Source: Verrucomicrobiota bacterium (GTDB lineage Bacteria; Verrucomicrobiota; Lentisphaeria; UBA2565; JAYEIY01). From it: DNA of 51,830 nt. Made by a program: the position numbers and the translations under genes. The DNA lies in contig JAYEIY010000300.1 in the NCBI GenBank assembly GCA_034660375.1, forward strand, positions 1 to 51,830. Direction: 5' to 3'. The first letter of the stretch is position 1; each line of letters starts with the position of its first letter. The notes beneath the pieces are model-generated. The model did not search any database, was not told the origin of the DNA, and worked only from the letters and a program-made list of their open reading frames with translations. This document shows, piece after piece, positions 800 through 30,000 of this stretch.

Positions 800-801
800 T
801 T

Positions 802-1287: not shown

Positions 1288-1384
1288 GTTTACTTTTTTG
1301 GTTTTTACAATTATTAACTCAATTAGAACTAAACTTAGAGGAGTAAAAAATACATTTACTGTTTTTTTTCGTATATATTCGTGG

Positions 1385-3332: not shown

Positions 3333-3734
3333 AAACCCTTTTTTTATGTGAAAAATAAACTATTTTCATATAGCATGCACGCTTTTTAAGAGAAGTAAAA
3401 TTGTTTTTTTTTGAGAAAAAATCACAAAATTTTGGTTTTTCCGCAATGTTACTTCCTGTTTTAATCTTTTTAATTTTGAATTTATTTCTACTTTTTGATT
3501 AAACTGTTTAGTTTTTCCAGTTTATTTTGCAGCTGTTTTATTTCATGCGTTTGTTTTTTCACAATTTCTAAACGCGCTATAAATGCATCCATATCTTCTT
3601 CATCAACATTTTCCATTCAATGGAAAGAGGAAATTCTTAAATAATTTAAGGAAAAGACTGGCAAAGAATTAAAAAACAAATATATTATTTTTTCCGGTTG
3701 TAGTAAAAACTATAGAAAATTATTTTTTAGATCA

Positions 3735-4559: not shown

Positions 4560-4660
4560 TCAAAAGACGCAGGAGAGCAAAAAAAAACAGCTAAAAAATA
4601 AATTAATAAAAACAAAGGGAAAGAGACTTTCAGCCCCTATTAATAAGGAGCAAGTATATT

Positions 4661-6166: not shown

Positions 6167-7063
6167 ATGCAAATAAAACCATTATTAGAAAAGAGTGAAG
6201 CAAAAAAGAATGCTGTTATTTTTGTGAGTGGGTCTGGCACAAATGCAGAAAAGATTCTTGAAAAATGGACTGCTGAAAAAAATACCGCAGCATTTAATAT
6301 AACTGCAATTATCACAGATCGTCCCAAGCAAAGTAGGGCAGGGCAGATTGCAGAAACATACAATATCCCCCTTGTGGAAAATGATATTAGAGAATTTTAT
6401 AATAAAAATGGATTGAAACGTATAACAATACGTACTGCAGAAGGACAAAAGGTCAGGGAAGCGTGGACTGATGCATTAAGAGAGCAGTTAAAAGACTATA
6501 CTATTGATTTTGGAATACTTGCTGGTTTTGTTCCGTTAACCAATATCACCGGAGACTTTCCATGCCTTAATGTACATCCCGGGGATTTAACATATCTAAA
6601 AGACGGAAAACGATATCTTGTAGGATTGCATACAATTCCAATAGAAAGGGCTATTTTGGAAGGTCTGGACGGACTGTCGTCAAGCGTTATTCTTGCTGAA
6701 CCGTATTCGGATAAGGGGGATGATATGGATTGTGGTATTATTTTAGGTATATCAGACAATGTTCCTGTTGAATTAGGTGTAAATTCGTTTGAAGAATTAC
6801 AGAAAACACATGATAATCGTCCATCAAAAAAACCTCGCGGAGGGTTTTCCGATATTCTTTCAGAAATAGCAGATAAAAATCTTGAAAATCTTAAGGTAAA
6901 TGGAGATTGGATTGTTTTTCCCCAAGTCATTTTTGATTTTGCGGCAGGGAAGTTCGGAGTTGATGATGAACGGAATCTTTACTATTTAATTAATTCTAAT
7001 TATCACCCCATAGAAAATGTTATATATGGAAAAAAAGAAAAGGAAATTCTTTTTAGAGATTAA
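6167..7063 (+). CDS. Formyltransferase-family protein (PurN-like N-terminal domain with extended C-terminus)
   Basis: AVIFVSGSGTNAEKIL, ILAGFVPL and NVHPGDL resemble the PurN motifs (SGsGsNl, LAGfMrIL, NiHPSLLP). The start is set at ATG 6167 (MQIKPLL) to avoid overlap with the upstream ORF. Confidence 0.65.
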   Translation: MQIKPLLEKSEAKKNAVIFVSGSGTNAEKILEKWTAEKNTAAFNITAIITDRPKQSRAGQIAETYNIPLVENDIREFYNKNGLKRITIRTAEGQKVREAWTDALREQLKDYTIDFGILAGFVPLTNITGDFPCLNVHPGDLTYLKDGKRYLVGLHTIPIERAILEGLDGLSSSVILAEPYSDKGDDMDCGIILGISDNVPVELGVNSFEELQKTHDNRPSKKPRGGFSDILSEIADKNLENLKVNGDWIVFPQVIFDFAAGKFGVDDERNLYYLINSNYHPIENVIYGKKEKEILFRD

Positions 7064-9605
7064 TTCCTTTAAATTATTCTGTTCTGGTGTCTTTTTCGTT
7101 TTTATTTTTTCTCTTCAAGCATATCAGATAAAGACAAAATCATTGCATTATAGAACAACTATTGATGTTCGAGTATTGGCAGAGGAATCGAAAACTATTT
7201 CGGTTCCAGTTGCTTGGCTTCCGATAAGTTTTCTTGTCAAAGATGGTCAATATGTAAAAGAATCAGAGAAGATAGCAGAATTTGATTCTGATTCAGCTAT
7301 TTTTCAACTTAATGGTCTTTTGAAAACGAAAGATGTTATTGCTGCTCGTCTTGATGAACAGCTTCAGAAAATTGACTCAAATGCTCTTGAGATGCAGGAT
7401 AATCTAAAAAATCTTTTTTCGCAGAAGTCCGTTCTTAAAGCTAAATTAACCCGTCTTAAATCACTTCCTAATCCCAATGAAGTTAAAATTGCTGCGGGTA
7501 GGCTGAAAGTAGCTAAATTAAATGCACTTACGGGACAGGAAGAATATGATAAGGCTCAGCAGAGATATAAAAACAAGCTGATTTCTATGGCTACTCTTGA
7601 GCATTATAAATATGCTTATCTTGAGAAAAATGCATTAAAAGAATATGCTCAGAATGACCTTGATTATACTGAGTTGACTGTATCAAAATCAAATCTTGAG
7701 ATAACAGAGTTTAAAATTGAAAATGTTGAAATGGAAATTGAAAAGCTCAAGAATGAGTTAAAAGAGCACAAAAATATTGCAAAAATAAAAAGAAAGGGTG
7801 CAAAAGCTAGGCTCAAAATAATAGAGACTAAGATAGAAGAGAAAAAAGATGATATTAAAAATACTCTTGTTCTTGCGCCTGCCGGAGGATACATAAAATA
7901 TGCAAATACCGCATGGCGAGATATAGAATTAGGAGCAAAACTATTCAAAAATATGACATTTCTGAAAATTCCACAGGTAAATACTCTGGAATTTAAGGGA
8001 GTTCTTTCAAACGCAGATAAAAAAAATCTAAGAGATGGGGATACGGTTACATTATTTATTGATGGGAAGAATCAGATTCCAATTAAAGGTTCCATAAAAA
8101 ATATAAGTCCCATGTCACATGATCTTGCCGAGAAAGATTCGTCTTCAAGAGGTACTTCAAACAAAGAATTTGGTGTAAAAGTATTTGATGTTGTGATAAG
8201 TTCAGAAAAAAAAATGGATTGGATAAAACCAGGCATGAGAGGTCGAGCTGAAATAGAATCAAAAGAACCTATTTTTGGGCCGGCGATACCATTAAGATAT
8301 TTAATTTCTGAAAATAATTTAAATTATATCTATACCAACAAAAAATATAAAATAAAAGGGACTTTTTGTGATGGATTTTTAATTGCAGACAATGAAGATT
8401 TTGCTGGTATGATAATCCGACCGTACAGAAAATATTATGGGAAAAAAGATGAAGAGAGAGATGATTCGGAGTTTTTTTCAGAAACGGGTACCATTATTCC
8501 TACAAAATCAATTGGTATATATATAGGTCGAGTTGTTTGGCCGTGGCCTAAAGTCAAATGGCTGGAGGAAGAGCATTCAACTGTAAAAAAAGGAGATATT
8601 GTTGCAAAGTTGGATACTACAGAAATTGACAAAAAAATAAAAGAGATAAAATCTCAACTTGAAGAACAGAAAGCTACGTTGGAAGAAGAGGAAAAAGAAT
8701 TTGAATTGATGAAAAAAGAAACAAAATTCACTTTAAGAAAACAAGAGAATTTAATGAAGATTGCAGAACTCAACATGAAAGTAGTTTTGAATGCACTTGA
8801 CTATAAAAAAATGTTTTCCGCAAGGCTTAGCCTGAAAAAGGCAAAACTTAACAGTGAAAAACTGGAAAAACAGTTGCTTAGATACAAGAAACGAAAAAAG
8901 ATTGCTCAGTCGCCAGATGAATTGAACGAATTGGAACGAAATTGTGCTAAAGCTAAGTTGAATATTCAAAAAAATAAAATAAATCTCTTACGCTCTGAAA
9001 GAGGGGCGGGAAAGATTGAAAGAAGCAAAGCGCATTTAGATTATTTAAAACAGGCAAATAAGGTTAGAATTTTGAAGAAACAGCATGATTATAGATACAT
9101 TCAGAAAAGGAATGAGATAAAAAAAACACAAATAGGGCTGAGCCAGGTAGAACGGCGCTTGAGAAAGAGTCTGCGACGTAAAGAAAATTATGTACTTAAG
9201 TCCCCCGCAGACGGAATTATTATTTATGAAAAAATATGGAATAGTGGTGAAATATCAAAAGTAAATACTGGAAGTCTGGTAGGTTCAAAGTTTAGAATAA
9301 TGTCTATCCCAGATTTGTCCCAGATGAGTGTTTCTATAGATATTCCTGAATACTATTATTCAAGAGTACAAGAAAATATGAAAGTAAAAATTGTTGTTCC
9401 TTCTTTACAAAATAAATCATTAAATGGAACTATTGAAAAAATTGGATTTTTATTTCATAATAAGAAACGTAAAGACAGTCAGTCGGGGCTTTATTCATCA
9501 CATGAGCCATTGGGCGAAGTCATATTCAAAACACACATAAAAATAGACTCCTTAAATTTATCTTTAAAGCCAGGTAGTACGGCAAAAATAATATTTCCTT
9601 TTTAG
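7017..9605 (+). CDS. Tandemly duplicated HlyD/MFP-like periplasmic adaptor (two adaptor modules in one 862-aa chain)
   Basis: N-terminal TM/signal anchor (LFCSGVFFVFIFSLQA). Module 1 (aa ~40-430) and module 2 (aa ~500-862) each have a lipoyl-like half (VKDGQYVKESEKIAEFDS / VKKGDIVAKLDT), long K/E-rich coiled coils, a LxAPxxGxI strand (VLAPAGGYIKY / LKSPADGIIIY) and a barrel ending in PGM/PGS. The start could be ATG 7026. Confidence 0.7.
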   Translation: MLYMEKKKRKFFLEINSFKLFCSGVFFVFIFSLQAYQIKTKSLHYRTTIDVRVLAEESKTISVPVAWLPISFLVKDGQYVKESEKIAEFDSDSAIFQLNGLLKTKDVIAARLDEQLQKIDSNALEMQDNLKNLFSQKSVLKAKLTRLKSLPNPNEVKIAAGRLKVAKLNALTGQEEYDKAQQRYKNKLISMATLEHYKYAYLEKNALKEYAQNDLDYTELTVSKSNLEITEFKIENVEMEIEKLKNELKEHKNIAKIKRKGAKARLKIIETKIEEKKDDIKNTLVLAPAGGYIKYANTAWRDIELGAKLFKNMTFLKIPQVNTLEFKGVLSNADKKNLRDGDTVTLFIDGKNQIPIKGSIKNISPMSHDLAEKDSSSRGTSNKEFGVKVFDVVISSEKKMDWIKPGMRGRAEIESKEPIFGPAIPLRYLISENNLNYIYTNKKYKIKGTFCDGFLIADNEDFAGMIIRPYRKYYGKKDEERDDSEFFSETGTIIPTKSIGIYIGRVVWPWPKVKWLEEEHSTVKKGDIVAKLDTTEIDKKIKEIKSQLEEQKATLEEEEKEFELMKKETKFTLRKQENLMKIAELNMKVVLNALDYKKMFSARLSLKKAKLNSEKLEKQLLRYKKRKKIAQSPDELNELERNCAKAKLNIQKNKINLLRSERGAGKIERSKAHLDYLKQANKVRILKKQHDYRYIQKRNEIKKTQIGLSQVERRLRKSLRRKENYVLKSPADGIIIYEKIWNSGEISKVNTGSLVGSKFRIMSIPDLSQMSVSIDIPEYYYSRVQENMKVKIVVPSLQNKSLNGTIEKIGFLFHNKKRKDSQSGLYSSHEPLGEVIFKTHIKIDSLNLSLKPGSTAKIIFPF

Positions 9606-9607
9606 AT

Positions 9608-10864
9608 ATGAAAAAAAAATATTTTTACATTATAGTGATGATTTTTATTTTTACACTATTTTTTTTCAAAGGGATTTTTGATTCTGAAGAGAAGGATAAT
9701 TCGATTCCTACACAAAAGACCTCTGTTGGTGCTTATATACACTTGCGTGGGGTCTTTAGTAGTTCTGAATTCAATCCGGTAAAAGCAAATATTCATGGGA
9801 GGATTGTTGAACTTGCAGAACACGCAGAAGTTGTAAAAAAGGGAGATTCTGTATTGCGTCTAAATACTGAAAATATTGCAGAGGTAATAGAAAGGAATTC
9901 TCTCGATTATATGAAAGCACAGATTGAAGAAGAAATATTAAAGGCAAAATATGATTTTACTGAATTTAAAGAAAAAAAACAAATTGAAGTTTTTAAGGCA
10001 GAACTAAAGCATGCAGAAACGGAAAGAATAATAGAACTTAGTAAACCAGATTCTGAAGAAATAGAATTATTGGATATTGATATAAAAAATGCTGAATATG
10101 ATTTGTCTGAAGCACAAGATAAGTGTCAGAGAAAGAAAAAGCTTTTTGATATGGATTTTATATCTAAAACGGTTCTTAAATCTTATAAAAACAAAGTCTA
10201 TAATTCTAAAATATATCTAGCTGAACTGAAAATAAAAAAAACAATAAGAATGCAGGGATTAGACGAGGAAAGAAAAATAGAATTGCAAAAGACCGTAGAA
10301 AAAGCACAGAATCTTGTAAATACATCCAAAAATAGAATGAAAAGAAGGCTGGAAATGGTCAAAAAACAGATAGTTACAGCTTCTATGAGAATGAAAGAAA
10401 AAAAGTTTCACCTTGACTATAATAAAAAAGAAATAAAAAATGCTGTTTCTAAAGCCCCTTCTAATGGAATTTTTAAAATTAGAAGCTATAAAAGTTGGAG
10501 GACGGGAGGGAAAACACGATTGCTTCAACTAGGTGAAGAAAAGTGGGCACATGATATCGTTGCTGATATAATCAACCCAAACAAAATGGAAATAGAATTT
10601 GTTGTAAATCAGGCTGATTTACATTATCTTAGAAAGGGGATGAAGGCTGAAATAAAGATTCCGGCATTACCAACAGTCGAAATGAATGGGAAAATAACTC
10701 ACCTAGGTGGTATAGGAAAAGATAGGCAAAAAATAGATCCAACAGCTGGAGCCGGCAAAGACTCCAATGTAATTGTTTATAATGCACAAATAGAACTGCA
10801 GAAAACAAATCCTGCTCTGAAACCGGGGATGTCAGCCGAAATTACAATTCCACTTAACCCTTAA
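9608..10864 (+). CDS. HlyD-family periplasmic adaptor subunit
   Basis: 418 aa. N-terminal TM segment, VKKGDSVLRLNT lipoyl motif, coiled-coil hairpin, APSNGIFKI, and LKPGMSAEITIPL at the C-terminus. Confidence 0.8.
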   Translation: MKKKYFYIIVMIFIFTLFFFKGIFDSEEKDNSIPTQKTSVGAYIHLRGVFSSSEFNPVKANIHGRIVELAEHAEVVKKGDSVLRLNTENIAEVIERNSLDYMKAQIEEEILKAKYDFTEFKEKKQIEVFKAELKHAETERIIELSKPDSEEIELLDIDIKNAEYDLSEAQDKCQRKKKLFDMDFISKTVLKSYKNKVYNSKIYLAELKIKKTIRMQGLDEERKIELQKTVEKAQNLVNTSKNRMKRRLEMVKKQIVTASMRMKEKKFHLDYNKKEIKNAVSKAPSNGIFKIRSYKSWRTGGKTRLLQLGEEKWAHDIVADIINPNKMEIEFVVNQADLHYLRKGMKAEIKIPALPTVEMNGKITHLGGIGKDRQKIDPTAGAGKDSNVIVYNAQIELQKTNPALKPGMSAEITIPLNP

Positions 10865-10887
10865 GCAGAAAAGCTAAAATATATTTA

Positions 10888-12888
10888 ATGGACAACATTT
10901 TAATCAAAATAGAACAGCTCAAAAGACATTATATTATGGGAGATAATATTGTGAGGGCTGTTGACGGGATTGATCTTGAGATTAGTCGGGGAGAGTTCTT
11001 ATCAATTGTCGGCAAATCCGGTTCTGGGAAGTCGACACTTATGCATATTTTAGGGCTTCTTGATATCTCGACAGATGGTGAATTTCTGATAGAAGGAACA
11101 AATACGGGTGAAATCTCTGATGAAAAACTTTCTACACTTCGCAATAAATATATCGGGTTTGTCTTTCAACAGTTTAATCTTTTAAGTGATCTGAATGTCA
11201 TTGAAAATATTGCCCTTCCACTCTCTTATAGTGCAGTTTTAAACGAAGAAAGGCTCGAAATAGCTGCACACTTTGCAAAAAAAGTAGGAATTTCTGACAG
11301 ACTTTATCACATGCCTTCTGAGCTTTCGGGAGGACAGGCTCAGCGTGTTGCAATTGCACGGGCTCTTGTCAATAAACCGGATATTATTCTTGCCGATGAA
11401 CCCACCGGTAATCTTGATTCACACACAAGTTCAAAAATAATGGATCTTATCCGGATGCTTCATGAACAAAACAACACAATTATCATGGTTACTCATGATT
11501 CAGCCGTTGCTGAGCAAGCAGATCGCACAATAACCATTTCTGACGGTAAGATTATTAGTGATAAATCTAAAAATGCTTTGTCTCAAAAAGACATGATCAA
11601 GGAAAGGAACAAATATGAAATTTCTTATGAAGAAAATCATTTGAGTTTGCGCGATCTTTTACGAATAGGAATCAGGGAAGGTTTGGCTGCGCATAAAACT
11701 AGGACACTTCTTACAATGCTCGGAATAATCATTGGAGTTTCTTCCGTTATTGCAATGTCCTCTTTTTCGATAGGTAGTAAAAAGAAACAGGCTAACCAAA
11801 TCCGGGCACTCGGGGCAAATCTGGTAAAAATTCAGGATAAAAAGCTGGAAAGTGAGAAACTTACCAGTGCCAGAATGGAAGGCTCTCCAGGACTTTCTTT
11901 CAGAGATCTGAATTGTCTAAAAAATAATCTTAAAAAAGAAATAAAAAATTTAGCATATATCAGGGATATCAAAATGAATGTTCTTTATGGTGAAAAAAGA
12001 ATTAATTCAAAAATAATGGGAGTAGGGGGGGATTATCTGCAAGTAAACAATCTTAAAATTTTGAAAGGAAGATTTTTTAATACTTCAGATCAAGAGGAAA
12101 GTACTCCTGTTGTTGTGTTGGGAATGCGCACTGCAGAAAAAATAATGGCTCATGCTCCTCAGGAGACTATAGGAAAAAAACTCCTTGCGGGTGGTGCATT
12201 TTATACGATTGTAGGGATACTGGAAGAAAAAAATATTGATTTTAAAGAACTTGAGGCAACTGATCTTAAAGACCCAAATGATACGATATTAATTCCTTTT
12301 AGAACACTGGTAGCAAGAACCGCTTCTATTGATCTTAGAAGTAAAATTGACGAGATTCAATTGCAACTTATATCTGAAGATCTTCTTTATACCGCCGGAA
12401 AAACAATCAAGAGGACGTTAAAGGCAACTCATGCAGAAGTTGACGATTTTAGTATAATAATTCCTATGGATCTATTAAAACAAAAACAACAATCTCAAAA
12501 ATTGCTGGATGTACTCACAATATGCATCTCATCAATTGCTTTAATTGTGGGAGGAATTGGCATTATGAATATTATGCTTGCATCTGTAATCGAAAGGATT
12601 CGGGAAATTGGTATTAGAAGAGCGGTAGGAGCATCCAAGCACGACATTTTATTCCAATTTCTCTCTGAAGCTGTGATAATTTCTGTTTCTGGAGGTGTTT
12701 TGGGTATAATCCTTGCTGCAGTAGGCGTAATAGCGGTATGTCTTGTCTTTGAAATTCCTATTGTATTTTCTCCGTTAATGGTAATTGTAGCCGTATTTGC
12801 AGCAGTCATAACAGGTTTGATTTTTGGGATTTACCCGGCACATCAAGCCGCTAATCAGAATCCTGTGGAGGCTCTAAGATATGAATAA
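10888..12888 (+). CDS. macB: MacB-type fused ABC ATPase/FtsX-permease
   Basis: Walker A GKSGSGKST, signature LSGGQAQRVAIARAL, Walker B IILADEPTGNLD. A TM helix, a large periplasmic domain and a C-terminal FtsX-like region (GGIGIMNIMLASVIERIREIGIRRAVGA) follow. Confidence 0.9.
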   Translation: MDNILIKIEQLKRHYIMGDNIVRAVDGIDLEISRGEFLSIVGKSGSGKSTLMHILGLLDISTDGEFLIEGTNTGEISDEKLSTLRNKYIGFVFQQFNLLSDLNVIENIALPLSYSAVLNEERLEIAAHFAKKVGISDRLYHMPSELSGGQAQRVAIARALVNKPDIILADEPTGNLDSHTSSKIMDLIRMLHEQNNTIIMVTHDSAVAEQADRTITISDGKIISDKSKNALSQKDMIKERNKYEISYEENHLSLRDLLRIGIREGLAAHKTRTLLTMLGIIIGVSSVIAMSSFSIGSKKKQANQIRALGANLVKIQDKKLESEKLTSARMEGSPGLSFRDLNCLKNNLKKEIKNLAYIRDIKMNVLYGEKRINSKIMGVGGDYLQVNNLKILKGRFFNTSDQEESTPVVVLGMRTAEKIMAHAPQETIGKKLLAGGAFYTIVGILEEKNIDFKELEATDLKDPNDTILIPFRTLVARTASIDLRSKIDEIQLQLISEDLLYTAGKTIKRTLKATHAEVDDFSIIIPMDLLKQKQQSQKLLDVLTICISSIALIVGGIGIMNIMLASVIERIREIGIRRAVGASKHDILFQFLSEAVIISVSGGVLGIILAAVGVIAVCLVFEIPIVFSPLMVIVAVFAAVITGLIFGIYPAHQAANQNPVEALRYE

Positions 12889-14200
12889 AATAACAACTTT
12901 TTTTATAGTCCTTTTTATATGTTTTTTGCTTGTTGGACAAGAAAAAACTATGTCTTTACAAAACTGTATAGAATATGCTCTGAAAAATTCTCCGGAATTG
13001 AAAAAAGAAAAAATTGATTTGCTTCGGCAGGAACTGAACACAATAGAAGCACAAGCTGCGTTTGCTTTTTCCCTTAATGCAAACTCAGATTATGCAATGA
13101 AAGAAGATGAAACGTCAAATAGCATTACTCTTTCAAAAGAATTTAGAAATGGACTAAATGTCAGTATGTCTGCCGATGCAAGTCTTGATTACGATGACAA
13201 ATCAGATTCATCAGGAATGTCAATAACTCTATCAAAACAGATTCTTGGAGGTGATTCAAGGCTTGAAAATACAAATATTATAGATGATAGCATAATTGAC
13301 GAAATAATTATTGCAAATAATTTAAGAAAAATAAGGCGTTCATTAATATTCTCAGTAAAAAAATCTTTCTATAAAATAATACGCTTTCAGCAGTCTATGA
13401 CAATACAGCAACGACGACTTGAACAGGCAAAAAGAAATTTAGAATTCGCCAGAGCCAAAGAAAATCCTCTTGATATAGCAACCGCCGAAATAGAGGTTCC
13501 TTCCAATCAACTCTCCTTGATTACAGCGGAAAGAATAATAGAAAGAGAAATAGATTCACTTAAAGAGATCCTTGGTATGCCAATTGAAGAAAATGTTTCT
13601 ATTTCCAAACAATTTGATTTTAAAATAACCAATCGGAGTTCGGCAGATGACATTGATTTTGCCCTAAATAATCATGAAGATTTTCTGAATAATAAACTCT
13701 ATTTACACAAATATAAATTGGATGCAGAGATTGCAAAATACAGTCTCTATCCGGATGTTTCTCTCTCTGCAAAGTTTTCAAAAGATAGTAGGGGAGCGAC
13801 TGTTAACCTTAATGGAGATGATGAGCAAACTTACATGCTCACTGCAAGATGGGAATTGGGTAGAAGAAGTTTTAAGGCTGATTATCAATCCAAACTCTAT
13901 AATATAAGCGAGAAAAAACTTGATTATTATATCTTAAAACAGAATAAAATAAAAACAATAAAAGAACTACTTCTCTACCTTAGGGAACGAGTAAAGGCAA
14001 TAAAAATACAGGGTAAAAAGATAACATTTCAAAAAAAGCAGGTAATGCTTTTCAACGATAGATGGGAAAACGGAGAAATAGATATCCTTGAGCTAATCCG
14101 AAGTCAAAACAGTCTTGAAAACAGTAAAGTTACTCTTATACAACAAAAAACTGGCTACATGGAACTTTACGCAGAATATCTTTACGAAATTGGACGTTAA
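12881..14200 (+). CDS. TolC-family outer-membrane efflux protein
   Basis: Signal peptide, then the SLQNCIEYALKNSPELK start typical of the OEP family, with two repeated coiled/beta halves. It overlaps the macB stop (ATGAATAA). Confidence 0.8.
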   Translation: MNKITTFFIVLFICFLLVGQEKTMSLQNCIEYALKNSPELKKEKIDLLRQELNTIEAQAAFAFSLNANSDYAMKEDETSNSITLSKEFRNGLNVSMSADASLDYDDKSDSSGMSITLSKQILGGDSRLENTNIIDDSIIDEIIIANNLRKIRRSLIFSVKKSFYKIIRFQQSMTIQQRRLEQAKRNLEFARAKENPLDIATAEIEVPSNQLSLITAERIIEREIDSLKEILGMPIEENVSISKQFDFKITNRSSADDIDFALNNHEDFLNNKLYLHKYKLDAEIAKYSLYPDVSLSAKFSKDSRGATVNLNGDDEQTYMLTARWELGRRSFKADYQSKLYNISEKKLDYYILKQNKIKTIKELLLYLRERVKAIKIQGKKITFQKKQVMLFNDRWENGEIDILELIRSQNSLENSKVTLIQQKTGYMELYAEYLYEIGR

Positions 14201-15524: not shown

Positions 15525-16439
15525 TTAATTTTTATTTTTTAATACTTCTTTTATTTCATTAAGTGAAAGACTTGTATAAGTGGATATTTGATTTTCATCT
15601 AATCCATTGTCATTCATTGCAGCTATCATATTTCTTTTTTCTTCGTCAGCTTTTCTTCTTTGTTTGTCAGCTTTTTTTCTTTCTTCCTCAGCTTTTTTTC
15701 TTTCTTTGTCTATTATTTTTTGAGCCTTTCTTCTTTCTTTATTGACAGCGGTTTCAATATGGCATTTTGCATCACCTTTTTTCCCACTCCAATAGTCATA
15801 TGCATTTAACTCTTCTTTTGACCAGTTTATTTGACTTGCAACATTAAAGGCTTCTAAAATTTCGGATTCAGTAATGCACGCTGGAATGACATTCAGTTCT
15901 CCCGCATTTTTTATGAAAAAAATCCATTTGTTAATGATAGATGAAAGTTCATCCTCTGATTTATTGAATTTTTTTAATTCAATAAAGTTGAATTCAAATT
16001 CTTTTAAGTCCTGGCGTTTTGTTTCCTGATTTATCATAATATGCCGAGTTAAAAAAGAATCGCCATCAAAGAGGTTAAAGTTTAGAATCCCTATAAAATA
16101 TGCCGGCTTTAGTTTTTGATAGTCTTCGGCTATTTTTATTTGTTCCACATAGGTTTTTGCCAGATAATATGTGGCTCGCTTCCCAAAACTTTCATTGCCT
16201 TCAACTTGCATTTCAACAATGAATTCTCTGCCAAGTTCATCAACGGCTTTGACATCCAGTGATGTGTATTTCAAGTCTTTTATTCGAGGAACTTGATAAG
16301 GAGATACTAAATCTACTTTTACAATCCTCCTTGGAAGTTCTAATACAGAATTTAAAAAACTGATAAGAATCTCTGTCTTCTTAGAGTCTCCGAATATTCT
16401 TTTAAATGCTAAATCATTCTTTGGATTTATAAAATGCAT
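15525..16439 (-). CDS. Rpn-family recombination-promoting nuclease / PD-(D/E)XK 'putative transposase' family protein
   Basis: NPKNDLAFKRIFG, SLDVKAVDELGREFIVEMQV (D...E.Q core) and YYLAKTYVEQ, with a K/E-rich C-terminal tail. These are typical of the family. Confidence 0.8.
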   Translation of the reverse strand: MHFINPKNDLAFKRIFGDSKKTEILISFLNSVLELPRRIVKVDLVSPYQVPRIKDLKYTSLDVKAVDELGREFIVEMQVEGNESFGKRATYYLAKTYVEQIKIAEDYQKLKPAYFIGILNFNLFDGDSFLTRHIMINQETKRQDLKEFEFNFIELKKFNKSEDELSSIINKWIFFIKNAGELNVIPACITESEILEAFNVASQINWSKEELNAYDYWSGKKGDAKCHIETAVNKERRKAQKIIDKERKKAEEERKKADKQRRKADEEKRNMIAAMNDNGLDENQISTYTSLSLNEIKEVLKNKN

Positions 16440-19092: not shown

Positions 19093-20652
19093 TTATATGT
19101 TTTCACAATTTTTAATTATTTTCCAATCGTTCATTTCTCGCATTTCTTTATCGAATGCAACTCCTACGAGAATAATTTTCTTTTTTGATAATTCATATTT
19201 TCTATAGTACTGTTTTTCTTTAATTTGTTTAATTGCGGAGTCCGCAGAATCAAAGAGTTTAAATTCAAATATGTAGATGTGTGAGTCTGTTTCTATAACA
19301 GCATCTATACGACCTTTATTTGTTTTTATTTCGGTTTTAATTCTAACACCTAACAAGGCAAAAACAAGATAGAAAATTGTCTGATAATACTTTTCATTGG
19401 CAATATGCAGATCATAATCAATATTGGCAAAAAATACATTAAGATTTTTCATGAATTTATCAATATCATTAGCCAAAATCGCCCGTTGAAGCTCATTCAA
19501 ATACTGTGGGGCAAGCTCTTTTGTCATTGGAGTATAATAATCTACCAAATACCTTAAAAATGCATTTTTTACTTCTCTGTTTGGATAAGAGAGGGTATAT
19601 TCATCATATTCTTCGTTGTAGTCAACAATTGTTGCATATCCAGTTTGAAAAAGTAGTGGTTCAACTCTTAAACGCTCAACTTCGTAAGCGGAAAATGCCA
19701 TCGCATCTAGTTTTAAACCTTCCAGAGATTTTATGTCATAGTTCTTATCACGCATCAATTCTAGTAAAAATGTGGGAGTTCCAGTTTCAAACCAGTAATT
19801 ATCAAATTCTCCTGTCATCATAAATTTGGTCAAAGAAACAGGGTTGTAGACAGTTATAGCCTTTTTTGATAACCTATATCCATTGTACCATTCTTTTATC
19901 TCTGCAATCAATTCTTTTTGATCTTTGTTGCGTTCTTCTGCAATCTCTGCAATTCTTTCTTTGAAATAAGATTCCACCTCATTTTGTGTAAAACCAAGCA
20001 TGGTAGAATATTTTGTATTCATAGTCAAATCATCAAGATTATTTAATTCTGAAAAAATAGAAACTTTAGAAAATTTGCTTACTCCTGTCATCATCGAAAA
20101 ACGTAAATGTGGTTCGGCAGTTTTAATAACAGAATAAAAGCCCTTCAAGGTCTCTTTTATTTTATGTATATTGTCATTTAAAACATTGCTTAAAATGGGC
20201 TTATCATATTCGTCAATTAAAATAACAACTTTATCAGTTTCAGATAAAATGTTTATTAATTCTTCAAATTTTTCTGCTGCTCCATCACGTTTTAATTCAA
20301 CTTTGTGTAAGGTCGCAATATCATCAATTTTATAGTTTAAGTGACGTTCCAGATCCGGGGCAGTATGGGCACTAATATTGCCAAGGTTAAGATTAATAAT
20401 AGGATACTTTTTCCAATCATAATCCTGTTCGTATATATAGAGTCCTTTAAAAAGCTCCTTGTCCCCTGAAAAAATGGATTTAAAAGTGGAAAGCATTAGG
20501 GATTTTCCAAATCTTCGGGGACGTGAAAGGAAGTACATTCCCTTTGGATTCTGAATTAAATCATAAATCTCTTTTGTTTTGTCGATATATAGAAAATTCC
20601 CATCTAAAATATCTTTAAACGTATATACACTTGTTGTTAGTCTTTTATTCAT
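19093..20652 (-). CDS. AAA-ATPase_like plus PD-(D/E)XK (PDDEXK_9/DUF1703) family protein
   Basis: FKDILDGNFLYIDKTKEIYDL, FLSRPRRFGKSLMLSTF and the C-terminal GRIDAVIETDSHIYIFEFK nuclease-like core. Confidence 0.85.
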   Translation of the reverse strand: MNKRLTTSVYTFKDILDGNFLYIDKTKEIYDLIQNPKGMYFLSRPRRFGKSLMLSTFKSIFSGDKELFKGLYIYEQDYDWKKYPIINLNLGNISAHTAPDLERHLNYKIDDIATLHKVELKRDGAAEKFEELINILSETDKVVILIDEYDKPILSNVLNDNIHKIKETLKGFYSVIKTAEPHLRFSMMTGVSKFSKVSIFSELNNLDDLTMNTKYSTMLGFTQNEVESYFKERIAEIAEERNKDQKELIAEIKEWYNGYRLSKKAITVYNPVSLTKFMMTGEFDNYWFETGTPTFLLELMRDKNYDIKSLEGLKLDAMAFSAYEVERLRVEPLLFQTGYATIVDYNEEYDEYTLSYPNREVKNAFLRYLVDYYTPMTKELAPQYLNELQRAILANDIDKFMKNLNVFFANIDYDLHIANEKYYQTIFYLVFALLGVRIKTEIKTNKGRIDAVIETDSHIYIFEFKLFDSADSAIKQIKEKQYYRKYELSKKKIILVGVAFDKEMREMNDWKIIKNCENI

Positions 20653-21037: not shown

Positions 21038-24000
21038 ATGATTCGATTTAAAAAGCGAAGTATAGGTTTAACAATTTTATTATGTATGTTGTTAGTGTGT
21101 TTGTCATCATTGTTTGCAGAAGATCCTGATTGGAGTGATAGTCATGACGGTGGAAATGTGGGAAGTATTACTTTAGACGGAGACGGAGCAGGCAGTGTTT
21201 CAGGAACTATAGATTCTTATGGCGGGGAGAATAATGGAGGTGACGTAGATTTCTTTTCTGTTGCTTTTCTTGCAGAGACCTCTTATATACTTAAAAATAG
21301 TGTGTGGGGGAGTGCTTTTAGAATTTATGATACAGATGGAACGACATCAATAAAATCATCATCGGATGATACTTCCTTCAGTACTGCATCAGGAGGAACT
21401 TATTACATCAAAGTCTATGGCGGCTGGGATTGCGGTAAAGGTGATTATACCATTGATATTTCAAAAAATGTAGAAGATGACCACGGAAATACATTTGCTA
21501 CGGTCAAGACGGCAGATATAATAACAGAAAGTGGGATACGTTCTGGTTCTTTGGAAGTAAATGGAGACGAAGATTATTTTAAATTTTCGGGAAGCAATGG
21601 AAATTACTATAAATATAAGATTAGTTCAAATGTAAGTGCCAGTCTTTATAGCTCGTCAGGATCTTATATAACAGGCGGATATGAAAAAATATTTCAATAT
21701 TCGACAGCACGGGATGGAGAGTATGTTTTTAAAGTGTATGGATGGGGAACACAAGATTACAATATCAAATTTTCAGCCGTGCAGTCTTCATCATTTCCTG
21801 ATGCACAGGTATCCTCAGTTGCAGTAAATGCAATTGAGAAAGGACGCGGAGACGTAACGGTTGATCCTGGAGAACAGTTTAAAACAGTATCAATTTTTAC
21901 AAACAATACTAATGATTGGCCATTTGAAATAGATAGTTCTCTGAATATAAAAACTCAGTTAGTCCCGACAGGAGCAGGTAATACAACAAATCTGGGAACA
22001 TACTATTTTAATGGACGCTATAGCGGATATGCCAGTGATTATACTTATTCTAGCTGGTACAATATCTGGCAGTCATCAATAAAATCAGGTTATTATAAAT
22101 TATTTATATCATTTAAAAGAAATAGTTCCTCAGATGAAGTTGATCATCGTTTTTATTTAGACAATATAAAGGTTCAGAATCAAGCTCAGGATACAGATTT
22201 ATGGACAGAAAATTTTGAACACGGCGGAGGATGGACTGGCAGAGATAATACTTGGTATTATTTAGCAGCAGACACAGGAGCAGACAAGGATGCAGTTATT
22301 CAGTCTGTAAAAGTGAATGAAGGAACCTATGCAGCGGCAGGTCCTGAAACAATAGCCGTAGGTGAAAATGTTATAATGTATAGGTATATCAATATAATAG
22401 AGGATGATGCAGTACTGACAGCAGATTATTGGGTTGATGGAGAAAGTAGTAATAATTTTGATGTTTATCTCATACGTGTCTTTAACGATCAGTATCCAAT
22501 TACAATTACAAATGATATAACCGTGCCGGAAGGAACGCCGGCAGGAACATATAACGTAGAGCTTACAGTGGACAGTAATTCTGAAGTCTTTGAATCAGAA
22601 GAAACTAATAATACTTTTACAACGATTTCCGGCAATCAAGTGACTGTAAATGCAAAGTCATATCCCGACCTAATTGTTTCAAGCATTTCTATTGCAACAG
22701 CAAGATCTTTGGATGTTACCGAAGAAGATGAGATTACGGTAAGTTGGACTGTTACTAATCAAGGAGATGTCGCCACAACCGTAATTTCTTCCGAGGGTAA
22801 CTGGGATGACAAGATCTACATAACAGATGATCCAAATGCAGAATGTAACCTACAATATATTACAACAGTTAATTACTCTAATGCTGATCTAGATCCTACA
22901 ACCAGAGGAACTTCCTACACAGTAAATGAAACGATTACACTCCCCGAAAATGCAGTTGGAACTCAATACATTGTAGTAAAAACAGATACCGGCGGAGATG
23001 TCATTGAGGGCAGCAACGAAGGGAATAATACAGAAATTGCTTCTACTCCGTTGGAAATAACCGCAAAAGACAGACCAAACCTGGTTGTAATAGATATGTC
23101 ACTGGATAAATCTTCTTATGAATTGGGAGGAGAGGCAACTCTTACCTACACAATAAAAAATGAGGGAACCGCAGATTCTTCAAAATTGTTTAATGATAGA
23201 ATATTTCTTTCTCAGGATAATACATTTGGATCAGATGTTTATCTCGGAGAAAATGAATATGATACTTATGCTCATGGAGGAAGTAAGGTATTTACTATTG
23301 AGTCTATAGGAACCTATTCGTGGGCAGGAATAGAAACAACAAAAACAGTACCAGCAGAAGGGGGAACTATATCTTTTTCCTATATTGCAGATACAATAGA
23401 ATATGGTAATAGATTGTATTTTTATATTTATGACTCAGAAGAAAATGAAGTACATAGTGCAAGCTGGACTTATGATACAGATTGGGATCAATACTCTTAC
23501 ACACTTACAAAAGGGACATATACCTTTAAATGGAGATATTATCACTCCAATTATTCTAACTCAGGAGTAGCATATCTTGATGACATATCATTTCCAGACG
23601 GTTCTACCGAAGATTTTGAGGGGGTAAGAAGTACTACATGGACACAGGTTGCTGGCGATAACGCATCTTGGGAGATTCTTGACTTGGGAAATGCACCCGC
23701 TCCATTAGTACCAGGAGACTCTTTTGTTAAAACTTATACAGTCACTATACCTGCTGACATAGCTTATGTAGATACAAACTGGATAGCGTTAGAAATTGAC
23801 AATGATGGAGATATTAATGAGGGAGTTTTTGGTGGGGAAGACGATAACGAAATTGTTGGAACGGGGACCACGGGAAATTTTGGGACATCTCTGGAACTTA
23901 CTATCCCAGATCATCCAGATCTAGTGGTTAGTAATATACAACTGAGAAGTGGAGCCACATCCGTATCTTGGGATGAGCAGGTTACACTTCAATGGACCGT

Positions 24001-27000
24001 AACAAATAATGGAGATGAACCTGCAATACCATCTTTAGGATATTATAATTATAATTCCATTTTCGATTATCTTTATCTCCTAGAAAATGCAGATGGAGAA
24101 AGTGATATGACAACATCAAACAGTGTAGTTACTTATCAAATTGGATATGATGATTATCATTATGGGACTTCAGAATCATTTTATAGTGATACTTTATCTG
24201 ACCTATCGCCGGGACAACATATAATTACATGGATATTCCGACGAAACAGTTCCGGTTCTGCAGGGACCAATTCAGCATGGATAGATAAATTTTCATATTT
24301 GGACGCAGGAGGTTCTACTGTTACAGAAGAATTTACAACAGGTATTCCGGATTCCGGTTGGACTACATTTGGAGATGTTAACTGGATTGCCGATGCTACA
24401 ACCGGATATTCTGATAGTCATTCTCTTACAGCAATTGGTTTGGATCATGATCAGTATGCAGGAATCTCTACAACTATTACTACTGGAAATGATGGCTCTG
24501 GAAGTAGTGATATAACTTACCGTTATAAAACATCCACAGAAAATAGTGATAGATTATATGTCTTTATAGATGGTATCCTTCTCCCTGGAGAATCAGTAAC
24601 AAGACTTGCAAAAATAACTGTTCCCCAACAAACAAGCAGTCCAAAAGATATGAAATTTGCTGTATGGACTGATGCAAATTATGACAGAATAAATGAATAT
24701 GATGACAATGACAATAATAAAACGATTGCAACATCAACAGTCTCTGTCAATCAACCAGATTATCCAGATCTGCAAGTTATGAATGTACAACTGGAAAATG
24801 CAGCTACATCTGTCACCTGGGATGAGCAGGTAGTACTTCAATGGACTGTTACAAATAATGGAGATGAACCTGCAATACCCAAATATACAACACAATACAA
24901 TACTCCACACGATTATCTTTATTTACTCAATTCGGATGCAACGACGACAAACATGACAACGTCAAATGAAGAAGCAAATTATTATTATGGATATGACGAT
25001 TCTCACTCTGGTGAATCAGGGGGATGGGTCTCTAATAGATTATATAATTTGCTTCCGGGTAATCATATAATTACGTGGATATTTAAGAAGGATTTTTCTC
25101 TTTCGGGAGGGGATGATGCAGTCTGGATTGATAATTTTACATATCTGGCAAGTGATAATTCTACAACGGTTGTAGAAAAATTCACAGACGGTATTCCCGC
25201 ATCTGGTTGGACTTTATTTGGGAATGTAGATTGGGCATCTGATGCAACAATTGGATATGATGATATATATTGCCTCAAGGCAGTAGGACTTGCAGATAAT
25301 CAATACGCTGGAATGTCTGTTGAAATAACAACGGGTGATGACGGAACTGGAAGCTGTGATGTTGATTATTATTACAAAACGTCTACAGAATCTAATGATA
25401 GACTTTATGTCTTTGTTGATGGAGTATTACTCCCGGGACAATCTGTTCAGCGTGAAAAAACAGTAACAATAGCACATCAAGACTCTGATACCGCAACAAT
25501 GAAATTTGGAGTATGGACAGACGCAACTAATAATATATTTACTGAAGATAATGATGATAATAATAAGACTTTTGCTTCCACAACAGTAACTGTAAATAAA
25601 CCGGATTATCCAGATCTGATTGTGACAAATATTGAAATAGAAGGAAATCCGACATCGGTAGCATGGGGACAGTCTATTACGGCAAATTGGACAATTAAAA
25701 ATCAGGGACTTGCTCCGGCAATTTTGAAGTGGGATGGGAATTCTTATAATTTAACTTGTGACTATCTCTATTTCCTTGAAGAAGATGATGAGATTGCAGA
25801 TATGAACTCTACTGTTACTTCACAAAATTTTGGGTATTACAATTATTATTCAGGAACAGCAGAAACGTTTTATCAGCAAAATGTAACAGGTATCAAGCAG
25901 GGAGAACATACTTTTACCTGGATTTACAGAAAAAACTCTTCTGGTTATGACGGACAGGATACCGTATGGATTGACAATCTTTCCTATACCGCATCTGATG
26001 ACTCAACCGCAACAGAAGATTTTACGACTGGAGTTCCCTCCTCGCCTGCTGACACTTGGTGGAATTTTGGTGATACTCAATGGATTGCGGACTCCGCAAA
26101 TGGTCAGGGAGAAGAAGATAACAATTCAATAAAAGCTACAGGTCTTGACGATAATAAATATGCAGCAGTTAGTTTTAAAACAACAATAGGTAACGCAGGA
26201 TCTGGAACAGGGAATCTCTCTTTCTACTATATGACCTCAACAGAAAGTTATGACAGATTATACTTCTTTATCGATGGAATTATCTATCCAGGAGAATCTC
26301 TTATTCGTTCAAAAACATTTACTGTACCGCAGCAGGATACAGACAACAAAACAATGAAATTAGGGGTTTATACAGATGGAGATTCCTGGCAGAATATTGT
26401 AGAAGAAGATGAAGATAATAATAAATTCATAGGAAGTACATTTACAGCTATAATACCTGATCATGCAGACCTTGTAGCAACTATTAATTCCGTTACCCGT
26501 AATACAAGAGGAGATTTTTATTGGGGAGATGAAGTTACAGTAAATTATACGATCACCAACAACGGGGATTATCCCACCGGAGTTCACTGGGAAGATGATT
26601 TGTACCTTTCCGAAGATCAAATTGAGGGAAGTGATACTTATTTAACAGAAAAAACCTTTAACTATACTACTAGACATTACTACGAAACACAAGATACGTG
26701 GAGTCAAAAAAGTATTGATGTTACAGCCGGAGAGCATAGATTTACGTGGGCATTTAAAAATACCGGAGTACAAAGTTATAATGATGATGATGTCTGGTTG
26801 GATTTTATTCAGTTTCCTGGGGGTGATAATGAAAGCTTTGAGGACGTCTCAGATGGTTTTGACCTTACAGGTTGGATAACAGCAGGAAATATCGGTTGGG
26901 CTCAGGATGGAACTCAGGCATCTTCCGTTGACGGAGGAAGCAAATCTTTAAAAAGCGGAGCCATAGGCTATAATGAATTCTCTGTTGTAAGTATTACGAA

Positions 27001-30000
27001 AACCGTAGATGCGGGAACTCTTACTTACTATACGCGTTTTTCGTGTGAAAATTATGATTATCTCTATTTTTTCATCGACGGAATGCTTTGTCCAGGACAG
27101 TCTTATACGACAGAACAAACATTTACTATGCCTACTTTGGACACAAATCTCAAAAATATGTACGTCATGTTGAAAACAAATAAAGATGATGATTTCAATG
27201 AATACGATGACACAGCAAATAATCTGGTATTTAGCGATGTCATGACTGTAAACTCAACTCCTGCACCTGATTTAGTTGTTTCTGAAATACAGTTTTCTCA
27301 AAACGGAGCACCCGTAGAAGGAGAATATTTCTGGGGAAAATCTCTCGATGTAACATACAAAATTACTAATCAGGGATCGGAAGATTTGATAGGAGTCTGG
27401 AATGACAAATTTGATCTCTATCAGAATGGAACTCATAAAGATCATCTGGGAGAAAAATCCACGACTTCACGCTATGGATCGTGGTCTTCTAATGCAAGCT
27501 GGGCACAACAAATATACACTATCCCGGCAGGGAAACGTCAGTTGCGTTGGAAATTCTATAGAGGACCGAACAGTACGGGCGATAATCATCTTGCATATAT
27601 TGATGATGTCTCGATTGTCGTGGGATATCAAATCTATAATGATACAGATGATAATGAAATAACCAGTGGCTCGGATTCTTCATGGACTGCACCGGAAAAT
27701 GTAGCAGGAAGTCAGACAGGGCTGTATTATTATGATGCAGATAACAACGATACCTATACCACAGGAGAAGATGTTTGGTATGGACATAGCTATAATCGTG
27801 GAGACAGTAATGAAGTAATTTACGACGGAGGAGATGGGTGGACTACTTTTTCTCAATCAGGTATTCAAACAGGACTTTATTATTATGATGTAGATGCAAG
27901 TGGAACTTATACTGTCGGAGAAGATATTTGGGCAGAAGGTGACGATGATGGACATTATACAGACGGAGTGGATACCAAAGTCTATGATGGTGGAGACGGA
28001 TGGGTTGCAGATGATGTTGACGGAAGAAATGACCTCTATTACAGAGATGCGGATTCAAACAATGCTTATACTGTCGGAGAAGATATCTGGAACGGATATT
28101 ATAGCTTCTCCTCCAAAAAAGTTTATGATGGTGGAGATGGATGGACGGTTAGTGGACAGTCGGGAAAACAAACAGACTTATTCTATTATGATGCAGACGG
28201 AAATTCAACGTACTCTGAAGGCGAGGATATCTGGGTTGATGCTCCGATAATTACAGAAGATTTTGAAAGCGTAACTTCTCCTGCATTACCTGGAGCGATA
28301 GCTGATGCATTCGGTGCCTGGACAAGCAATACTACAAACGGAAATGATGATGTCTGGGTAACGGTCGGTTCAGAGGAAAGTCCAGATGGTCACGACAGTA
28401 ATATTGCTGCTCAAATTGGTGCAAATATAGGCACAGATCAAGCAGCCGAACTTGTTACTGATGTTGATTTTGCAAAGTCAACACGAATAAAATTCTGGAG
28501 AAAAATGGTTATAGACAACTCTGATGATAATCTCTATTTCAATGTCTATGACAAATTAGCACAGGGCGAATTTGTTTGGAGAGAATATACCACAAACACT
28601 ATAGATAACTATTTTGATGGGACTTATCAGTTGCGTGTAACAACAGACTGCGATGATACTATAGAAGAGTACGATAAAGAAGATAACAATGATCTTGAAA
28701 CCAATATTACTCTAAGAGCTCCAAATTTGGCAGATCTTACCGTTACATCACTTGTCAGTTATGATGCAAATGCATATACAGGAGAAGATTTTACATTTAC
28801 GTATACTCTGAATAATCTTGGAGGCATAGCCGCTACATCTACAATATATGACAAGTATTTCTTTGTTAATGTGTCCACCAATACTTCATATCCAGTAAGT
28901 TCAAGTGCAAACAATAATTACAAAAGTATTAGTGATGATATTGCCGGAGAAAGCAGTCTTCAGGTCACAGCCACACTGGAAGTAGGGAATATCCCGGAAG
29001 GAGAGTATTATTTAAGAATTTATACCGATACAGGAAATTATAATAATGATCCGGAAAGCTATCTTTTAGGCGGACAATATTATTCTGGCGGATACATTGT
29101 TGAATCCTGTGATGATAAGTATATTGATCCCAACTACGCCGTACAGACAAATAACAATATATTCAATACCGATGACACTCAAAAAATAAATGTAACCTTC
29201 CATACATCAGATTTGATTACTACAAATATAAGTGTTCCTGAAGATGCCGCATGGGGAACAACTGTTCAAGTCTCCTATACTATGCTTAACGCAGGTCCAA
29301 GCTCAACTCCGGCAGGAATTGCAAATATCCCGGCAAATGTGCCGTTTTACAATAAAGCATGGTTTTCAGAAGACGGTGTAAACTGGGGTAGTTATACCAC
29401 CACAACCGTTTCTGAAGAATCTGCAGGAGAAGGAGATTATACTGCTGCATCTGGTGGTATCTCACACAGTCAGTCTTCTGGGATAGAAATATCCAAAACA
29501 GTACCTGCCGAAGGAGGAACAATCTCATTCAAATATCGAACGTCTTCAGAAAGTGGATATGACTATCTAAGATTTTATGTTATTAATGATTCTCAGGAAA
29601 CAATTCATAGTCAGGCTTGGGCAGGAAATGGTTCATGGACTACATATTCTTACAATGTCGTTGACCCTGGAACATATACTTTTAGATGGAGATATACTAA
29701 AGACGGAAGCGTTAATAGCTATAATGACACAGTTTATCTTGACGATATAAGTTTCCCCGATGGAAGTGCAGAAACCTTTGAAACGGGAACTTTTAGCGGA
29801 AGCTGGACACAGGTAGCAGGGAGTAATGCCGATTGGACCATAGAACAATACATATTCCCATTACCTGTTGATCAGACAGCCATACGTACCATGGGAGTGG
29901 CAATTCCATCCAATGCTACCGAAGGATATATCAAAATTGAACTTGACTATAACAATAATGCAGGCGAATTTAATCAGGCAAGAGATAATAACATTACAAC

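Follow-up and report, generated by a model that had tools for sequence, protein, structure and literature searches.

CARDB domains probably hosting circularly permuted jelly rolls in a giant surface-protein candidate of a Lentisphaeria bacterium

Contig JAYEIY010000300.1 of a Verrucomicrobiota bacterium (assembly GCA_034660375.1; Genome Taxonomy Database lineage Lentisphaeria; UBA2565; JAYEIY01) was analysed over positions 1 to 51,830, a stretch of 51,830 nucleotides (nt) which we refer to as the window. It contains an exceptionally long gene:

21038-46345, + strand: giant open reading frame (ORF), 8,435 amino acids (aa), uninterrupted over 25.3 kb, a surface-protein candidate

Nine CARDB domains of the encoded protein are each interrupted, always in the identical loop, by a single domain, a jelly roll whose sequence blocks are circularly permuted relative to its ordinary, tandemly arrayed relatives. 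For the overall architecture, in which CARDBs host circularly permuted jelly rolls, we estimate a probability of about 0.8. Four points are documented below: that the CARDBs are split, that the jelly roll is permuted, that each insert is a single domain and that the insert cassettes vary among orthologues.

Results

Layout of the split units

The giant protein begins with an N-terminal hydrophobic signal-like segment, continues with ~34 CARDB-type domains (aa ~255-5271) and ends in a heterogeneous C-terminal region. Ordinary CARDBs make up ~25 of its domains, and profile comparison shows the split ones to be homologous to them. A first-pass annotation of the window, made from the letters alone, had proposed five tandem super-modules at nt 23906-28720 (aa 957-2561), each consisting of a CARDB-like fold split by inserted sequence. 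Repeat-unit alignment recovers the five (u1-u5, aa 955-2562), and all the motifs quoted in that annotation are present. The three isolated splits that it also listed are confirmed as u0, u6 and u7, and we identified a fourth that it had not listed, um1. Below, CN and CC denote the N and C halves of a host CARDB, and [1], [2] and [3] denote the jelly-roll blocks numbered in their native order. The super-module u1 (aa 955-1239) is given part by part and the other units more briefly; the block between [3] and [1][2] of u5 is treated with the YYDAD repeats.

23900-24145, + strand: u1 CN, aa 955-1036, strands 1-4; positions 3-58 of the intact-CARDB hidden Markov model (HMM; see below), 22.8 bits; Pfam CARDB positions 2-35
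24146-24307, + strand: u1 jelly-roll [3], the canonical C-terminal third placed first, aa 1037-1090; canonical HMM positions 83-120
24308-24574, + strand: u1 jelly-roll [1][2], the canonical N-terminal two thirds placed second, aa 1091-1179; canonical HMM positions 4-73
24575-24754, + strand: u1 CC, aa 1180-1239, strands 5-7; intact-CARDB HMM positions 72-115, 13.4 bits
24755-25600, + strand: u2, aa 1240-1521; CN 24755-24985, [3] 24986-25153, [1][2] 25154-25423, CC 25424-25600
25601-26455, + strand: u3, aa 1522-1806; CN 25601-25828, [3] 25829-25996, [1][2] 25997-26278, CC 26279-26455
26456-27253, + strand: u4, aa 1807-2072; CN 26456-26656, [3] 26657-26821, [1][2] 26822-27082, CC 27083-27253
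27254-28723, + strand: u5, aa 2073-2562; CN 27254-27460, [3] 27461-27622, YYDAD block, [1][2] 28241-28552, CC 28553-28723
21800-22642, + strand: um1, aa 255-535, of all split units the one nearest the N terminus; its motif order gives register [3][1][2]; N half very divergent
23063-23872, + strand: u0, aa 676-945, register [2][3][1]; CN 23063-23269, [2][3] 23270-23605, [1] 23606-23680, CC 23681-23872
29195-30031, + strand: u6, aa 2720-2998, register [2][3][1]; CN 29195-29431, [2][3] 29432-29764, [1] 29765-29845, CC 29846-30031
32051-32812, + strand: u7, aa 3672-3925, CARDB split by a [3][1][2] jelly roll; kept in all orthologues found

CARDB domains are split into complementary halves

Two CARDB profiles were used. 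An iterated in-house HMM of 109 positions was derived from the giant protein's own CARDBs, and in every unit the N flank of the insert matched the first two thirds of this profile and the C flank its last half. The second, intact-only HMM (118 positions) was built from the 16 uninterrupted CARDBs of the giant protein, leaving out the split units to avoid circularity. Its reference domains are located as follows:

30035-36850, + strand: mostly uninterrupted CARDB run, aa 3000-5271, including u7; 14 of the 16 reference domains
aa 544-664 and aa 2566-2668: the remaining two reference domains

Against the intact-only HMM, the N flanks cover positions ~2-60 and the C flanks ~72-115, so that the two are complementary and do not overlap. 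When the flanks were joined in an artificial construct, eight of the nine units gave a single match, spanning 2-115 across u0-u6 and 3-104 in u7, with scores of 28-57 bits that lie near the sum of the two halves (u1: positions 3-115, 37.6 bits). The joined flanks of u6 matched positions 2-115 with 28.1 bits, and positions 1-104 of the in-house HMM with 53.8 bits; those of um1 matched positions 3-109 of the in-house HMM with 43.3 bits. The joined flanks also belong to the Pfam CARDB family by its gathering cut-off of 22.7 bits, with 34.7 bits for u0 (profile positions 2-98 of 101) and, again for the artificial join, 26.5 bits for u1. Native u1 scored 22.4 bits, its best stretch lying in the N half alone (profile positions 2-35). 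Because the joined flanks span the whole CARDB profile, the flanking segments are halves of one domain and not independent complete domains, in agreement with the first-pass proposal of a CARDB host.

Orthologous proteins provide the same picture without any artificial construct. In P0014 and P0064, the CARDBs at the positions of u0 and u4 are uninterrupted, and the gap in the alignment coincides exactly with the point of insertion. The split point is fixed, as had been proposed; it lies in the loop between CARDB strands 4 and 5, which is followed at once by the conserved motif [LI]-x-P-G-[EQ]-S. An AlphaFold2 (AF2) model of the whole u1, computed from a 5-sequence alignment, had a mean predicted local distance difference test score (pLDDT) of 71.5 and a predicted template modelling score (pTM) of 0.73, with seven flank strands predicted at pLDDT 73-85, as would be expected of a well-defined body made of two domains. 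A Foldseek search with this two-domain model returned uninformative alignments (root mean square deviation 12-29 A, query template modelling score, TMq, <=0.34).

One further CARDB, at 33233-33721 (aa 4066-4228), is otherwise ordinary but longer by ~30 residues (SYTDSNSNGQYDEGESFTDSNGNGVWDDD), in which two D-x-N-x-N-G motifs resemble calcium loops. These residues occupy the strand-4/strand-5 loop, the host loop of the jelly rolls, and are absent from the orthologue P0145. This loop may be a general insertion hot spot.

The insert is one circularly permuted jelly roll

Comparison of u0 and u6 with u1-u4 revealed a shared set of three sequence blocks in differing order. Block [1] is characterized by the motif E-D-F-E...W...W, block [2] by ...S..S...G.lsF.Y..S.E..D.L.F.iDG and block [3] by ...W...y.l..G.H.i.W.y.k..S..G.D...iD.i.f. 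The register is [3][1][2] in seven units, um1 among them, and [2][3][1] in the other two, u0 and u6. The native order was established from a profile search that covered 1.84 billion representative proteins and yielded 7,194 at E<=0.001, of which the best 150 were examined for domain layout. Many of the 7,194 matching proteins carry the jelly roll as long arrays of head-to-tail copies, ordered [1][2][3]. In one of them, P0051, block [1] directly follows an N-terminal hydrophobic signal-like segment (assigned by eye) and the last repeat closes with block [3], which fixes [1][2][3] as the native order.

A canonical profile of 121 positions was then built only from ordinary tandem-array proteins. 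It matches u1-u5 in two pieces whose order is swapped, positions ~80-120 first and ~4-73 second. In u0 (42-121) and u6 (14-121, 76.9 bits) it matches in one piece, with block [1] displaced behind it. The jelly-roll pieces of um1 fell below significance against this profile (independent E-values 1.0 and 0.84). Once rotated to the native order, all nine inserts are colinear in the alignment.

Structure prediction agrees with a single domain. The u1 insert alone (aa 1037-1179, 143 aa), modelled by AF2 with six paralogues, formed one compact body of eleven strands (pLDDT 85.6, pTM 0.82). Its Foldseek matches at probability 1.0 were almost all ConA-type lectins, the classic natural examples of permutation in this fold, plus the engineered circularly permuted beta-glucanase 1ajo, with TMq 0.45-0.55 over ~138 of 143 columns. 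As the E-values are weak and the identities 10-15%, the insert is assigned as ConA-like at the level of the fold only. The first-pass annotation had described the inserted region of each unit as two jelly-roll-like domains. The swapped profile pieces, the colinearity after rotation, the single-body model and the Foldseek matches show instead one circularly permuted jelly roll.

In register [3][1][2], the chain leaves the CARDB after strand 4, enters block [3] and, from the end of block [2], returns directly into the CARDB motif without a linker (...LYVFIDG followed by ILLPGES...). The former termini of the jelly roll are closed by ~10 residues (...SYLDAGGSTVTEEF...). Since [2] and [3] are consecutive in the ordinary domain, the new ends of the insert are neighbours by construction, and the same holds for the cut between [1] and [2] in u0 and u6.

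Family assignment of the jelly roll

The names MAM and choice-of-anchor J, which the first-pass annotation had suggested for the inserts, were both rejected. At E<=1, Pfam MAM (PF00629) matched two of the nine rotated inserts: u0 reached 17.4 bits (E 0.0042) against a gathering cut-off of 26.4, and the second member had the best E-value, 0.001. No NCBIfam model, choice-of-anchor J included, matched the native, joined or rotated sequences at E<=10. A profile of the rotated inserts gave marginal matches to the C-terminal domain of VesC (6bqm, E 0.0084) and to the K2 adhesin domain of gingipain Kgp (3km5, E 0.017), in the latter case with pieces [1] and [3] colinear with K2's N and C termini. Taken singly, canonical domains of the jelly-roll family had no match in Pfam-A and none in NCBIfam at E<=1. 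A word-index homologue search returned no match for u1 and, for the unit alignment, only one 436-aa fragment.

In its unpermuted form the jelly roll is very widespread in long tandem arrays, for instance in P0001, P0047, P0051 and P0137, and P0001 alone has 29 matched stretches. The analysis thus points to a very widespread tandem-array jelly-roll family that has no Pfam or NCBIfam model.

Variability of the inserts among orthologues

Orthologues of the giant protein were found in Lentisphaerota metagenome-assembled genomes (MAGs), namely Lentisphaerae bacterium SI037_bin151, an uncultured Victivallales bacterium and Lentisphaeria SW_4_46. Among the best 150 of the 7,194 proteins, the whole unit was matched only by P0009, P0014, P0064 and P0145, all of which are fragments or full copies of giant-protein orthologues. 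The remaining proteins of these 150 are pure CARDB arrays or pure jelly-roll arrays, and many are giant proteins with 8-16 plain CARDBs. In distant relatives from two Planctomycetota MAGs (L004 and L005; Tepidisphaeraceae and Phycisphaerae), the stretch fetched contained only long runs of uninterrupted CARDBs, and the split was seen in Lentisphaerota only.

The orthologues differ in the number of their super-modules and YYDAD repeats, so that the idea of the inserts as variable cassettes, raised in the first-pass annotation, is borne out. The inserts of um1, u5 and u7 are present in both P0014 and P0064, that of um1 being recognised there by reading the sequences, and u1-u3 and u6 are missing from both. 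The Victivallales MAG (L002) encodes u0 in register [2][3][1], six [3][1][2] units, u6 in register [2][3][1] and u7; in the last of its six [3][1][2] units, two YYDAD-like repeats lie where the jelly-roll termini are joined. Unit u7 shows 34-48% identity across independent MAGs (L001/L006, L002 and L003; L006, the single locus contributed by a metagenome scan, looks like a duplicate of L001), with conserved insertion points.

In a rough neighbour-joining tree of the rotated inserts, those with register [2][3][1] from the window and from L002 cluster in a single clade, in which u6 pairs with the u6 of L002 (54% identity). The first unit of P0009 groups with units A-D of L002. We had considered that the u0 site might display three states at one orthologous position; because the P0009 insert groups with L002 units A-D and not with u0 of the window, we claim only positional equivalence at this site. 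At least two permutation or insertion events into one host loop, or one re-permutation in place, would account for the two registers.

YYDAD repeats

The first-pass annotation had placed a third level of nesting in u5, in the form of four repeats between two inserted domains.

27623-28240, + strand: u5 block between [3] and [1], four YYDAD repeats, aa 2196-2401
aa 2222-2248, 2272-2300, 2325-2352 and 2373-2401: cores of the four repeats

The four repeats (aa 2222-2401) are confirmed and do constitute a third level in the sequence. Their position needs correction: the block lies where the original C terminus of one jelly roll is joined to its original N terminus, rather than in a jelly-roll loop or between two domains. 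The repeat core reads G.YYYDaD.n.tYt.GEDiW, and each of the u5 repeats contains a D-x-D-x-[NS]-x-x-x-x-x-x-E pattern (for example DADGNSTYSEGE), which suggests EF-hand-like loops that are candidates for calcium binding. No significant Pfam family was found for the repeats. Copy number in the u5 equivalents varies, with four here, two in L002 and none in P0014 and P0064. A second four-repeat YYDAD block is present at 43499-44155 (aa 7488-7706), in the C-terminal region of the giant protein, and P0064 has five repeats, also C-terminal.

The 57/62-nt stretch in u1 and u2

The near-identical stretch of 57/62 nt on which the first-pass annotation based a recent duplication or gene conversion does exist, at 23969-24030 in u1 and 24818-24879 in u2. 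Overall DNA identity of u1 and u2 is 66.7%, and the proportion of identical codons at identical residues is 57% in this pair versus 45-49% in other pairs. In a codon-identity permutation test, the best u1/u2 window was equalled in 40% of shuffles (p = 0.40), and gene conversion was accordingly rejected as an explanation. As the stretch coincides with the most conserved peptide stretch and is reached this often in shuffles, it provides no evidence of recent duplication or gene conversion.

Genomic setting and other regions of the giant protein

Pfam CARDB (PF07705) scores 162 bits over the first 4,000 aa of the giant protein and 89 bits over the remainder. Other Pfam matches are few: DUF7619, a CarboxypepD_reg/SpaA-like stretch and weak Ig-like families. 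Cysteine-rich EGF-like repeats (CPEGQHKN..GECV) were observed in the C-terminal region at ~40850-41140 (aa ~6605-6700), followed by an aspartate run (DNDNDDDDDDDDYGGDGGED). CARDB arrays are typical of cell-surface proteins, and, to judge by eye from its N terminus, which resembles a Sec signal, the giant protein is probably exported by the Sec pathway to the cell surface.

The genes around the giant ORF form an ordinary chromosomal set of a diderm bacterium, including gyrA, a MacB/HlyD/OEP pump, LptF/G and galactokinase, and the guanine plus cytosine content of the window is 32-42%. An apparent operon comprises a MacB-type ABC transporter, two adaptors of the HlyD family and an efflux protein of the outer membrane. 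Just upstream of the giant gene, gyrA lies between two genes of the PD-(D/E)XK family, of which one is PDDEXK_2 transposase-like and the second AAA-ATPase_like plus PDDEXK_9.

7017-14200, + strand: apparent efflux operon, ~7 kb upstream of the giant gene
15525-16439, - strand: PD-(D/E)XK-family gene
19093-20652, - strand: PD-(D/E)XK-family gene

Discussion

Possible origin and role of the inserts

The permuted inserts could have arisen from out-of-register, one-repeat-long pieces of tandem jelly-roll arrays, or by duplication and trimming in place. Whole super-modules would then have been amplified in tandem, and in u5 the closure of the jelly-roll termini would have been expanded by the four YYDAD repeats, as calcium-dependent extensions. 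Attached at two points without a linker, each insert would hold a lectin-like module rigidly beside the stalk, which might turn the giant protein into a multivalent adhesin. ConA-like, MAM and cleaved-adhesin folds are usually binding modules. By analogy with them, the most likely role of the inserts would be that of binding modules on an adhesin stalk, to which we give somewhat less than an even chance.

We propose, with slightly less conviction, that the permutation is the very feature that makes a jelly roll from a tandem array insertable, as it provides ends from neighbouring strands and therefore allows a linker-free graft. The principle of the engineered megabodies, discussed below, would then have been reached naturally at least twice within this protein family, in two registers at one host loop, and the family would preserve the evolutionary intermediates: no insert, [3][1][2], [2][3][1] and a closure expanded with YYDAD.

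Alternative readings

The architecture may be right and the inserts nonetheless non-binding: they might space the structure, provide shielding or antigenic variation, or stiffen the stalk in a calcium-dependent manner. Neither ligand-binding residues nor a family-level function can be assigned to them, their copy number varies freely among orthologues, and the YYDAD and other D-x-D-x-N loops would be compatible with calcium-dependent rigidity. The usual binding role of the folds named above and the weak profile matches to gingipain K2 (3km5) and to the C-terminal domain of VesC speak against it. Of the alternatives we consider this the best placed, although still unlikely.

A very improbable reading concerns the pairing of the parts. 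The array order ...[1][2]-CC-CN-[3]... can also be read as a native jelly roll interrupted by a CARDB, so that [1][2] of one unit would combine with [3] of the next in a daisy chain, which is equivalent to a jelly-roll host with a permuted CARDB inserted in it. In this arrangement [3] of u1 and [1][2] of u5 would have nothing to pair with, since u0 is complete and an intact CARDB comes after u5. Moreover, lone [3][1][2] units, namely um1, u7 and, in P0014 and P0064, the equivalents of u5, have an intact CARDB on either side, the insert-free orthologous CARDBs are colinear with CN plus CC of a single unit, and [3] and [1][2] of one unit are confidently predicted to fold together.

That each insert consists of two separate jelly rolls side by side, MAM-like or choice-of-anchor-J-like, with true domain-in-domain-in-domain nesting where the YYDAD repeats occur, is hardly tenable. 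There are indeed two conserved motif blocks per insert, and in u5 they are ~200 aa of repeats apart. The blocks nevertheless match complementary parts of the canonical profile (80-120 and 4-73), block [3], at ~55 aa, falls short of the length of a jelly roll, the 143-aa insert as a whole is predicted as one body, and NCBIfam provides no choice-of-anchor J match and Pfam MAM only a sub-cut-off one.

Finally, long repeats are prone to assembly errors, but an artefact of mis-assembled or collapsed repeats, or a decaying non-functional sequence, can be dismissed, as the ORF is open throughout its 25.3 kb, the independently assembled MAGs (L001/L006, L002 and L003) share the architecture, and the units are too divergent to collapse because their protein identity is only 30-57%.

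Several points weigh against permuted jelly rolls hosted by CARDBs. The N half of um1 is hardly recognisable as CARDB (0.5 bits versus 20.2 for its C half, intact-only HMM). The AF2 alignments are very shallow, with 5-6 paralogues, the Foldseek E-values are weak (~1e-3) with moderate TM scores, and the jelly-roll family lacks a Pfam or NCBIfam model. The packing of the two CARDB halves in one sandwich and the nearness of the insert ends are what we infer from profiles, orthologues, pTM and secondary structure.

Comparison with known systems

Ordinary CARDB arrays (PF07705) occur in large bacterial and archaeal surface proteins, and the split CARDBs described here are their homologues. The difference lies in the interruption by a jelly roll, which, among the best 150 of the 7,194 proteins, was found only in the four orthologues of the present protein. 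In Gram-positive pilus adhesins such as RrgA, a binding domain interrupts the Ig-like domains of the stalk, with nesting over several levels. The likeness is that of surface adhesins with interrupted Ig-like stalk domains; the domain families are others, and single nested sets are found there instead of the tandem super-modules seen here. We know of no report of circular permutation in RrgA-type adhesins. A literature search found no paper linking CARDB with domain insertion, and nothing relevant on CARDB in Lentisphaerae or in giant proteins.

PDZ is described as the domain family that is found inserted most often, with several permuted forms, and thus resembles the present jelly roll as a family often nested in other domains and occurring in several permutation registers. 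The two differ in fold, host and biology, and the part of the PDZ account available to us describes no CARDB or jelly-roll case.

A natural circular permutation of the ConA-like jelly roll is known between ConA and favin or other legume lectins (Cunningham et al. 1979, as cited in PMC13552848), where ConA is permuted post-translationally, by transpeptidation. The fold class is shared, as is a rotated strand order with the fold kept, and ConA-type lectins and 1ajo are the best structural matches of the insert. In contrast to ConA, the permutation described here is encoded in the gene, exists in two registers and is coupled to insertion into another domain, and identity is only 10-15%.

The closest parallel in design is engineered. 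In megabodies, a nanobody carries a circularly permuted scaffold protein between its beta-strands A and B (bioRxiv 10.1101/812230). In both cases an Ig-type sandwich is joined by two peptide bonds to a permuted partner; in the megabody the new ends of that partner come from a beta-hairpin and the chimera is rigid (bioRxiv 10.1101/812230). The present case differs in being natural, in using the strand-4/5 loop and a jelly-roll insert, and in occurring nine times per polypeptide, and its rigidity would follow by inference from the linker-free joints.

The family forms a compact natural series that bears on how permuted domains originate, whether by duplication and trimming or by capture from tandem arrays, on which loops of Ig-like stalk domains tolerate rigid grafts, and on how binding modules come to be mounted at the side of giant adhesins. 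A lesson for annotation is that 'partial CARDB' matches in giant proteins can be the halves of one domain. Domain insertion and circular permutation are each well known; what is uncommon is a natural case in which the gene itself encodes both, in repeated form, with two registers at a single host site and with polymorphism among orthologues.

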